A stretch of 64,000 nucleotides of DNA from Escherichia coli (lineage in GTDB: Bacteria; Pseudomonadota; Gammaproteobacteria; Enterobacterales; Enterobacteriaceae): NCBI RefSeq assembly GCF_003334355.1, contig NZ_QOWP01000001.1, one strand, 5' to 3'. The stretch's first letter is position 1. Every line of letters starts with the position of its first letter. The notes under the pieces are model-generated. The model saw only the letters and a list, made by a program, of their open reading frames with translations, searched no databases and was not told the DNA's origin. A program made the position numbers and the translations under genes. Shown here in pieces: positions 62,452 through 64,000 of the stretch.

Positions 62452-63210
62452 ATGAGCCAAATTTTACTGCAACCTGCTAACGCGATGATTACGCTGGAAA
62501 ACGTCAATAAATGGTATGGACAATTCCATGTTTTGAAAAATATAAATTTAACCGTGCAACCGGGAGAACGGATCGTTCTGTGTGGCCCTTCAGGTTCCGG
62601 TAAATCGACAACCATTCGTTGTATTAATCATCTGGAAGAACATCAACAGGGACGGATCGTGGTAGATGGCATCGAACTTAATGAAGATATCCGCAATATT
62701 GAGCGCGTCAGGCAGGAAGTGGGAATGGTCTTTCAGCATTTCAATCTCTTCCCTCATCTGACCGTTTTACAGAACTGTACCCTGGCACCGATTTGGGTAC
62801 GCAAGATGCCTAAGAAAGAGGCTGAAGATCTGGCGGTGCATTACCTAGAGCGGGTGAGAATTGCCGAACATGCGCATAAGTTTCCCGGACAGATTTCAGG
62901 TGGTCAGCAGCAACGCGTTGCCATTGCGCGTTCGCTGTGTATGAAGCCGAAAATTATGTTGTTTGATGAGCCAACGTCGGCGCTCGATCCTGAGATGGTG
63001 AAAGAGGTGCTGGATACGATGATTGGGCTGGCGCAGTCGGGTATGACAATGTTGTGTGTAACACATGAGATGGGGTTTGCACGAACCGTCGCTGACCGGG
63101 TAATTTTTATGGATCGTGGGGAAATAGTGGAGCAAGCTGCACCTGATGAATTTTTTGCGCATCCTAAATCAGAGCGTACGAGGGCATTTTTATCGCAGGT
63201 AATCCATTAA
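62452..63210 (+). CDS. yhdZ: Amino acid ABC transporter ATP-binding protein YhdZ
   Basis: 252-aa ORF with Walker A (GPSGSGKST), ABC signature (SGGQQQR) and Walker B ([10 protein letters not shown]). Confidence 0.95.
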
Positions 63211-63231: not shown

Positions 63232-63259
63232 AAAAAGGCCATCCTTTCGGATGGCCTTT
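63232..63259 (-). terminator. rRNA operon terminator T2 (minus strand); may also terminate yhdZ
   Basis: aaaaaggccatcctttcggatggccttt is the reverse complement of an rrn T2-type hairpin. Confidence 0.8.
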
Positions 63260-63398
63260 CGCTTGATTTGATGTCTGGCAGTTTATGGCGGGCGTCCTGC
63301 CCGCCACCCTCCGGGCCGTTGCTTCGCAACGTTCAAATCCGCTCCCGGCGGATTTGTCCTACTCAGGAGAGCGTTCACCGACAAACAACAGATAAAAC

Positions 63399-63432
63399 AA
63401 AAGGCCCAGTCTTTCGACTGAGCCTTTTGTTT
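63399..63432 (-). terminator. rRNA operon terminator T1 (minus strand)
   Basis: aaaaggcccagtctttcgactgagcctttt is the reverse complement of the classic rrn T1 hairpin (aaaggctcagtcgaaagactgggccttt). Confidence 0.85.
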
Positions 63433-63438
63433 TATTTG

Positions 63439-63558
63439 ATGCCTGGCAGTTCCCTACTCTCGCATGGGGAGACCCCACACTACCATCGGCGCTACGGCGT
63501 TTCACTTCTGAGTTCGGCATGGGGTCAGGTGGGACCACCGCGCTACTGCCGCCAGACA
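63439..63558 (-). rRNA. rrfF: 5S ribosomal RNA, distal copy (rrfF-like)
   Basis: The reverse complement matches E. coli 5S rRNA (UGCCUGGCGGCAGUAGCGCGGUGGUCCCACCUGACCCCAUGCCGAACUCAG...GGAACUGCCAGGCAU). Confidence 0.95.
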
Positions 63559-63595
63559 AATTCTTTTCTAATCTGCCGAACTTTAACCTAAAAAG

Positions 63596-63671
63596 TGGTG
63601 CTGATACCCAGAGTCGAACTGGGGACCTCACCCTTACCAAGGGTGCGCTCTACCAACTGAGCCATATCAGC
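63596..63671 (-). tRNA. thrV: tRNA-Thr (anticodon GGU)
   Basis: The reverse complement reads GCTGATATGGCTCAGTTGGTAGAGCGCACCCTTGGTAAGGGTGAGGTCCCCAGTTCGACTCTGGGTATCAGCACCA, a cloverleaf with a GGT anticodon and encoded CCA. Confidence 0.95.
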
Positions 63672-63683
63672 ACGCTAAATTTG

Positions 63684-63803
63684 ATGCCTGGCAGTTCCCT
63701 ACTCTCGCATGGGGAGACCCCACACTACCATCGGCGCTACGGCGTTTCACTTCTGAGTTCGGCATGGGGTCAGGTGGGACCACCGCGCTACTGCCGCCAG
63801 ACA
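63684..63803 (-). rRNA. rrfD: 5S ribosomal RNA, second copy
   Basis: Identical in sequence to the copy at 63439-63558. Confidence 0.95.
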
Positions 63804-63840
63804 AATTCTTTTCTAATCTGCCGAACTTTAACCTAAAAAG

Positions 63841-63916
63841 TGGTGCTGATACCCAGAGTCGAACTGGGGACCTCACCCTTACCAAGGGTGCGCTCTACCA
63901 ACTGAGCCATATCAGC
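63841..63916 (-). tRNA. thrV: tRNA-Thr (anticodon GGU), second copy
   Basis: Identical to the tRNA at 63596-63671; part of an exact 245-bp tandem unit. Confidence 0.9.
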
Positions 63917-63928
63917 ACGCTAAATTTG

Positions 63929-64000
63929 ATGCCTGGCAGTTCCCTACTCTCGCATGGGGAGACCCCACACTACCATCGGCGCTACGGCGTTTCACTTCTG
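63929..64000 (-). rRNA. 5S ribosomal RNA, third copy (3' portion; truncated by the window end)
   Basis: Same sequence as the 3' part of the other 5S copies; the gene continues beyond position 64000. Confidence 0.9.

Follow-up and report, generated by a model that had tools for sequence, protein, structure and literature searches.

The distal end of the rrnD operon of Escherichia coli K-12 carries two 5S rRNA genes separated by a single tRNA-Thr gene, thrV. The window, meaning the whole 64,000-nucleotide stretch of E. coli DNA analyzed here, ends in a tandem array in which a 5S/tRNA-Thr unit is repeated at such a locus. The question is whether the source isolate has gained a unit, or whether the second copy was generated by the assembler. 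The answer towards which the evidence leans is that the window shows an rrnD distal end enlarged by one 245-bp unit, most likely produced by unequal homologous recombination between 5S genes.

Organization of the array

Positions 63434–64000 were returned by Tandem Repeats Finder as one tandem array with a period of 245, 2.3 copies, 100% matches, and 0 indels. Direct string comparison found 63439–63683 identical to 63684–63928, and the 245-bp periodicity stops at 63433 but otherwise continues through the final base of the window, 64000. The exact tandem repeat, spacers included, that had been described in a first-pass annotation was therefore confirmed, and all of the coordinates given there agreed with the ARAGORN and Rfam calls and with the identity to K-12.

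On the minus strand, the order is a 5S gene cut by the window, tRNA-Thr(GGU), 5S, tRNA-Thr(GGU), 5S, and the terminators T1 and T2, followed by the convergent gene yhdZ (Table 1). The two tRNA genes, called as tRNA-Thr(GGT) by ARAGORN, are both identical to K-12 thrV (76/76). Two full-length 5S genes were detected on the minus strand with the Rfam model RF00001 at 63441–63556 and 63686–63801, both with 89.1 bits for a gathering score of 38; the K-12-style boundaries of 120 nt are used in Table 1. The window closes with 72 nt identical to the 3′ end of K-12 rrfD. The spacers, of 37 nt from thrV to 5S and 12 nt from 5S to thrV, are identical to those of K-12 in both pairs. No promoter-like site was found within the array, and both terminator-like hairpins lie downstream of it. 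As the convergent neighbor is yhdZ, the locus is rrnD. Bona fide 5S genes, a thrV between 5S genes, and the convergent yhdZ with T1 and T2 were all present, as at an rrnD-type distal end. The label "extra" fits either unit, 63684–63928 or 63439–63683.

Table 1. Features of the rrnD distal end in the window
Feature	Position	Strand	Basis
Proximal 5S (rrfD position), 3′ 72 nt within the window	63929–64000	-	Identity to K-12 rrfD; periodicity continues
tRNA-Thr(GGU), promoter-proximal copy = K-12 thrV	63841–63916	-	ARAGORN; Rfam tRNA 70.7 bits; string identity
Middle 5S, junction copy: rrfF-type 5′ end (U3, A12), G117, then rrfD-type 12-nt spacer	63684–63803	-	Rfam 89.1 bits; markers
tRNA-Thr(GGU), distal copy = K-12 thrV	63596–63671	-	ARAGORN; Rfam; string identity
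Distal 5S (rrfF position), U3/A12/G117, allele as in BL21(DE3)	63439–63558	-	Rfam; comparison
One 245-bp unit (12-nt spacer, thrV, 37-nt spacer, 5S)	63684–63928	-	Identical to 63439–63683
rrnD terminator T1	63392–63435	-	20-pair hairpin and T-run
Inter-terminator segment, corresponding to the rrF small-RNA region of rrnD	63261–63391	-	Position between T1 and T2
rrnD terminator T2, bidirectional hairpin facing yhdZ	63233–63260	-	Hairpin prediction
yhdZ, amino-acid ABC transporter ATPase	62452–63210	+	Ungapped alignment to MG1655 3422400 onward and MG1655 annotation; coordinates derived

The segment between the terminators corresponds to rrF and ends in a remnant resembling the 3′ end of 5S (AACTGCCAGACATCAAAT). 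The rrF RNA of rrnD is described in PMC8144298 as being transcribed by read-through of T1, and as binding Hfq and CsrA in vitro.

Reference strains and the repeat junction

The annotation of MG1655 reads yhdZ-rrfF-thrV-rrfD-rrlD. This is the order rrfD-thrV-rrfF, with one tRNA-Thr and two 5S genes, that the first-pass annotation had given for K-12, and the window has one unit more, in line with the proposal made there of at least one extra unit. It had also named a K-12 reference with three 5S genes as the finding that would make the array unremarkable; this was looked at and does not apply. The rrnD operons of strains PSS-12, TOP10, and BL21(DE3) likewise have two 5S genes and one thrV, and a 5S gene between two thrV genes was found in only 3 of 5,426 complete E. 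coli genomes. The reading that rrnD normally carries three 5S and two thrV genes has practically no chance of being correct, and is refuted by these counts.

The 25 kb flanking the array are closest to those of PSS-12, a human faecal isolate. The change is probably recent, as this closest relative by flank has the normal arrangement. When one unit was deleted in silico, the remaining sequence was identical to that of BL21(DE3) over 605 nt, a stretch that covers both terminators as well as the array and the first part of yhdZ. Against MG1655 and PSS-12, the same sequence shows four SNPs clustered within 78 nt (about 63365–63442). They lie at 5S position 117, in the T1 loop, and at two places between T1 and T2, and carry the BL21(DE3) bases. 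The cluster has the look of a short patch introduced by recombination or gene conversion. At some of these sites the base agrees with rrnB, yet an rrnD-specific base sits between them, so that the cluster is not one simple rrnB tract.

Two RefSeq assemblies of laboratory strains showed unusual junctions upstream of the 5S-thrV-5S end. In TOP10 (NZ_CP080620; 3721–4351 of the retrieved locus), this end of rrnD abuts gatB instead of a 23S gene. In BL21(DE3) (NZ_CP081489; 495–951 of the retrieved locus), it abuts a fragment of a phage tail-fibre assembly gene, again instead of 23S. Either rearrangement or misassembly at an rRNA repeat may account for these junctions.

The structure of the repeat suggests how a unit could be gained. 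Only RNA positions 3, 12, and 117 distinguish rrfD from rrfF in K-12. In helix I, position 3 is paired with position 117, as C-G in rrfD and as a compensated U-A in K-12 rrfF, and the two form a U·G wobble in both complete 5S genes of the window. With the allele of the window, a normal operon would contain a perfect direct repeat of 113 nt common to its two 5S genes, comprising positions 13–120 and the following CAAAT, with copies starting 245 bp apart. The period of the array, 245 bp, is also the spacing from rrfF to rrfD in MG1655. In the middle 5S, 5′ markers of the rrfF type (T3, A12) are followed by the rrfD-type 12-nt spacer, and there are no foreign bases at the junction. A period matching the gene spacing, head-to-tail units, a junction without novel sequence, a hybrid junction copy, and a reciprocal deletion in other strains were thus all found. 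The anatomy of the window fits an unequal crossover exactly.

In the proposed mechanism, the two 5S genes already present would undergo unequal homologous recombination between sister chromosomes. With rrfF of one sister paired with rrfD of its counterpart, one product would be 245 bp longer and one 245 bp shorter. The former would have the order 23S-5S-thrV-5S-thrV-5S-T1-T2 in place of 23S-rrfD-thrV-rrfF-T1-T2. RecA-independent slipped misalignment during replication could lead to the same product by another route. The event would have occurred in the source isolate itself. The converse event appears in a table of mutations of laboratory-selected E. coli in PMC12323667, where an entry at 3,423,530, "245 bp del.", takes out thrV entirely together with portions of rrfF and rrfD.

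Frequency of the unit and the possibility of an assembly artefact

The number of units was compared with that of other strains, as had been suggested in the first-pass annotation. A query of 369 nt was used, consisting of spacer-thrV-spacer-5S-spacer-thrV-spacer, with an E-value limit of 1e-160, which requires one HSP of more than about 290 nt. Ordinary BLAST coverage was rejected as a discriminator, as overlapping pieces are joined and genomes with one thrV also reach 100%. The three carriers found with this query are S103EC (NZ_CP076693), Br_54_kylling (NZ_CP182365), and CH4790 (NZ_CM166351), which puts the frequency of the two-thrV allele among complete E. coli genomes at about 0.06%. All three are annotated as 23S-5S-tRNA-Thr-5S-tRNA-Thr-5S-yhdZ.

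Single units were counted with a query of 125 nt at E < 1e-45. The thrV unit was present in 5,393 and absent from 33 of the 5,426 complete genomes, and exactly one unit is kept in 99.3% of them. Strain C7, with 23S-5S-yhdZ and no thrV, is a confirmed case of rrnD with one 5S gene. The idea that records showing yhdZ with one rrf gene, such as EC958, represent common deletions was discarded, the unit being absent from only 33 genomes; most of these records presumably carry the unit elsewhere. Five genome records had two places matching the thrV unit; three of these are the tandem arrays, and one of the places is on a record labelled as a plasmid.

In the three carriers, the middle 5S ends in GGCAT (rrfD type) and the distal 5S in GACAT (rrfF type), so the crossover is placed inside the 5S gene. 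In CH4790 the hybrid 5S is marked by G117 as against A117. The architecture is found in at least two different strain backgrounds. The 25-kb flank of S103EC is identical to that of dozens of complete genomes among the matches listed (ST131-type, for example EC958). Inheritance of the allele within a clade was not borne out, as S103EC is the sole carrier among these listed genomes with an identical flank; the array is therefore a sporadic singleton and not a lineage marker.

A 168-bp segment comprising T1 and the rrF region, within 63274–63448 of the window, is missing from S103EC and Br_54_kylling. The end points of this deletion lie in an 18-nt repeat, AACTGCCAGNCATCAAAT, common to the 3′ end of 5S and the remnant preceding T2. 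Besides the 5S genes, this is a second repeat prone to recombination at the locus. Records such as that of UTI89, matched in three pieces that covered 90% of the query, may carry the 168-bp deletion as well.

The search was extended beyond complete E. coli genomes by exact-pattern scans, whose sensitivity is incomplete. Neither 100,044 species-representative genomes nor JGI metagenome contigs yielded tandem thrV cores at the spacing of the array in these scans. A control scan for two 5S cores 200–230 nt apart retrieved 72 genomes and 46 metagenome contigs, in none of which a third 5S core was found. The E. coli representative and the main Salmonella enterica representative were absent from the list of 72 species, though E. 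coli normally has an end with two 5S genes. The absence of the E. coli representative indicates that some genomes are missed by exact-pattern scans.

The rarity of the allele bears on the main alternative. It is quite possible, if not the reading favored here, that the isolate has a normal rrfD-thrV-rrfF end and that a short-read de Bruijn assembler went twice through the 5S/thrV loop. The path would run from the 5S core through the rrfF 5′ end, spacer, thrV, and spacer into the 5S core again, until the contig broke off in the rRNA repeat. No base differs between the two units of the window, which is what a double traversal would produce. The 113-nt shared tract exceeds common k values, so that the graph should carry no information on the copy number; by the same reasoning, at k below about 113 the states with one and two thrV should share one de Bruijn graph. 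With a real allele present in only about 0.06% of genomes (3/5,426), even a rare assembler error could compete. On the other side, the architecture does exist in three complete genomes. Read threading by assemblers normally resolves repeats shorter than the reads, and the 113-nt tract is shorter than a 150-nt read. Over-traversal was seen in 0 of 118 mostly draft assemblies with a similar loop, a count that bounds its rate only to roughly below 2.5%.

The position of the window end was considered in the same light. Short-read contigs typically break in sequence shared among 5S genes. The array is cut by the window end at a depth of 77 nt in the tract common to the path on the T1 side, and of 78 nt in the tract common to rrfC, rrfE, rrfG, and rrfH, whose flanks begin with CAAATT; both depths are close to k values in common use. 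An exact contig end for k = 77 was rejected, as the flanks of these four K-12 5S genes share 6 nt and not 5 with the spacer, giving 78. About half of the draft contigs from other species also begin or end in or next to the proximal 5S. The position thus hints at a short-read contig ending in an rRNA repeat, although the k-mer signature is inexact (77 or 78) and the distribution of depths in the drafts of other species is noisy. As the two units are identical and the array has no internal crossover marker, unlike that of CH4790, a real array and an assembler loop are not separated by the sequence of the window alone. With this alternative in view, a real gain of one unit by unequal recombination remains the preferred reading.

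Expected consequences and comparison with known operon ends

If real, the additional unit would bring no promoter of its own and, lying upstream of T1 and T2, would be co-transcribed from the rrnD promoters P1 and P2, which lie with the 16S and 23S genes beyond the window end at 64000. As the flanks of the extra genes are native spacers, normal processing should release a functional 5S rRNA and a second tRNA-Thr(GGU). The change in the dosage of these translation components would be modest, with nine 5S genes in place of eight and two thrV in place of one.

Positive selection of a real duplication for the extra dosage of tRNA-Thr(GGU) or 5S is a special case of the preferred reading, and a very improbable one. 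In its favor, the two-thrV state has arisen at least two times independently in different backgrounds, and 5S gene dosage is said to affect fitness, in a 1999 study by Ammons, Rampersad and Fox. Against it, all known two-thrV cases are singletons within their lineages, exactly one unit is held by 99.3% of genomes, and there is no sign of a clade retaining an extra copy. The broader proposal that the 245-bp 5S-thrV unit is a hypermutable copy-number locus with one, two, or three 5S genes, tuning dosage under transient selection in particular niches, and that the window caught such an adaptive expansion in the act, is highly doubtful.

The practical value of the locus lies mainly in genome quality control and in rRNA and tRNA gene counts, as used in resources of the rrnDB type and in models of tRNA copy number. 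The copy number at the distal end of rrnD is not to be trusted from short-read assemblies. The components are all known genes and the mechanism, textbook recombination between direct repeats, holds nothing new. Annotated examples of the three-5S allele already exist in three RefSeq genomes; no paper describing it was found in literature searches.

Operon ends with 5S-tRNA-5S are also known from Citrobacter, Enterobacter, Pantoea, Serratia, Yersinia, and others, with two 5S cores 233–260 bp apart; unlike the window, none of the 72 genomes retrieved in the control scan has a third core. One of the closest references is the rrnD distal end of K-12 (rrlD-rrfD-thrV-rrfF-T1-T2), which shares with the window the locus, the neighbor yhdZ, thrV, the spacers, and the dual terminators. 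The window differs from it by one more 245-bp unit, by G117 instead of A117 in the distal 5S, and by three more SNPs located within T1 or beyond it; BL21(DE3) has the bases of the window at these sites.

The reciprocal 245-bp deletion, represented by C7, the 33 genomes without the unit, and the mutant listed in PMC12323667, involves the same repeat and the same unit with the opposite sign. It is a loss and not a gain, and is about ten times commoner among complete genomes (33 versus 3). The loss is irreversible, as the deletion removes the repeat. S103EC, Br_54_kylling, and CH4790 have the architecture of the window and an identical 369-nt core. They differ from it in their backgrounds, in a distal 5S ending in GACAT, and in units that differ from each other by one base; the flank and terminator SNPs of the window match none of the three. 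If real, the window would be the fourth example of an rrnD distal end gaining, and not only losing, the 245-bp unit through 5S recombination. It is best filed as a further instance, and a rare allele, of the known copy-number polymorphism of this operon end, with one, two, or three 5S genes.
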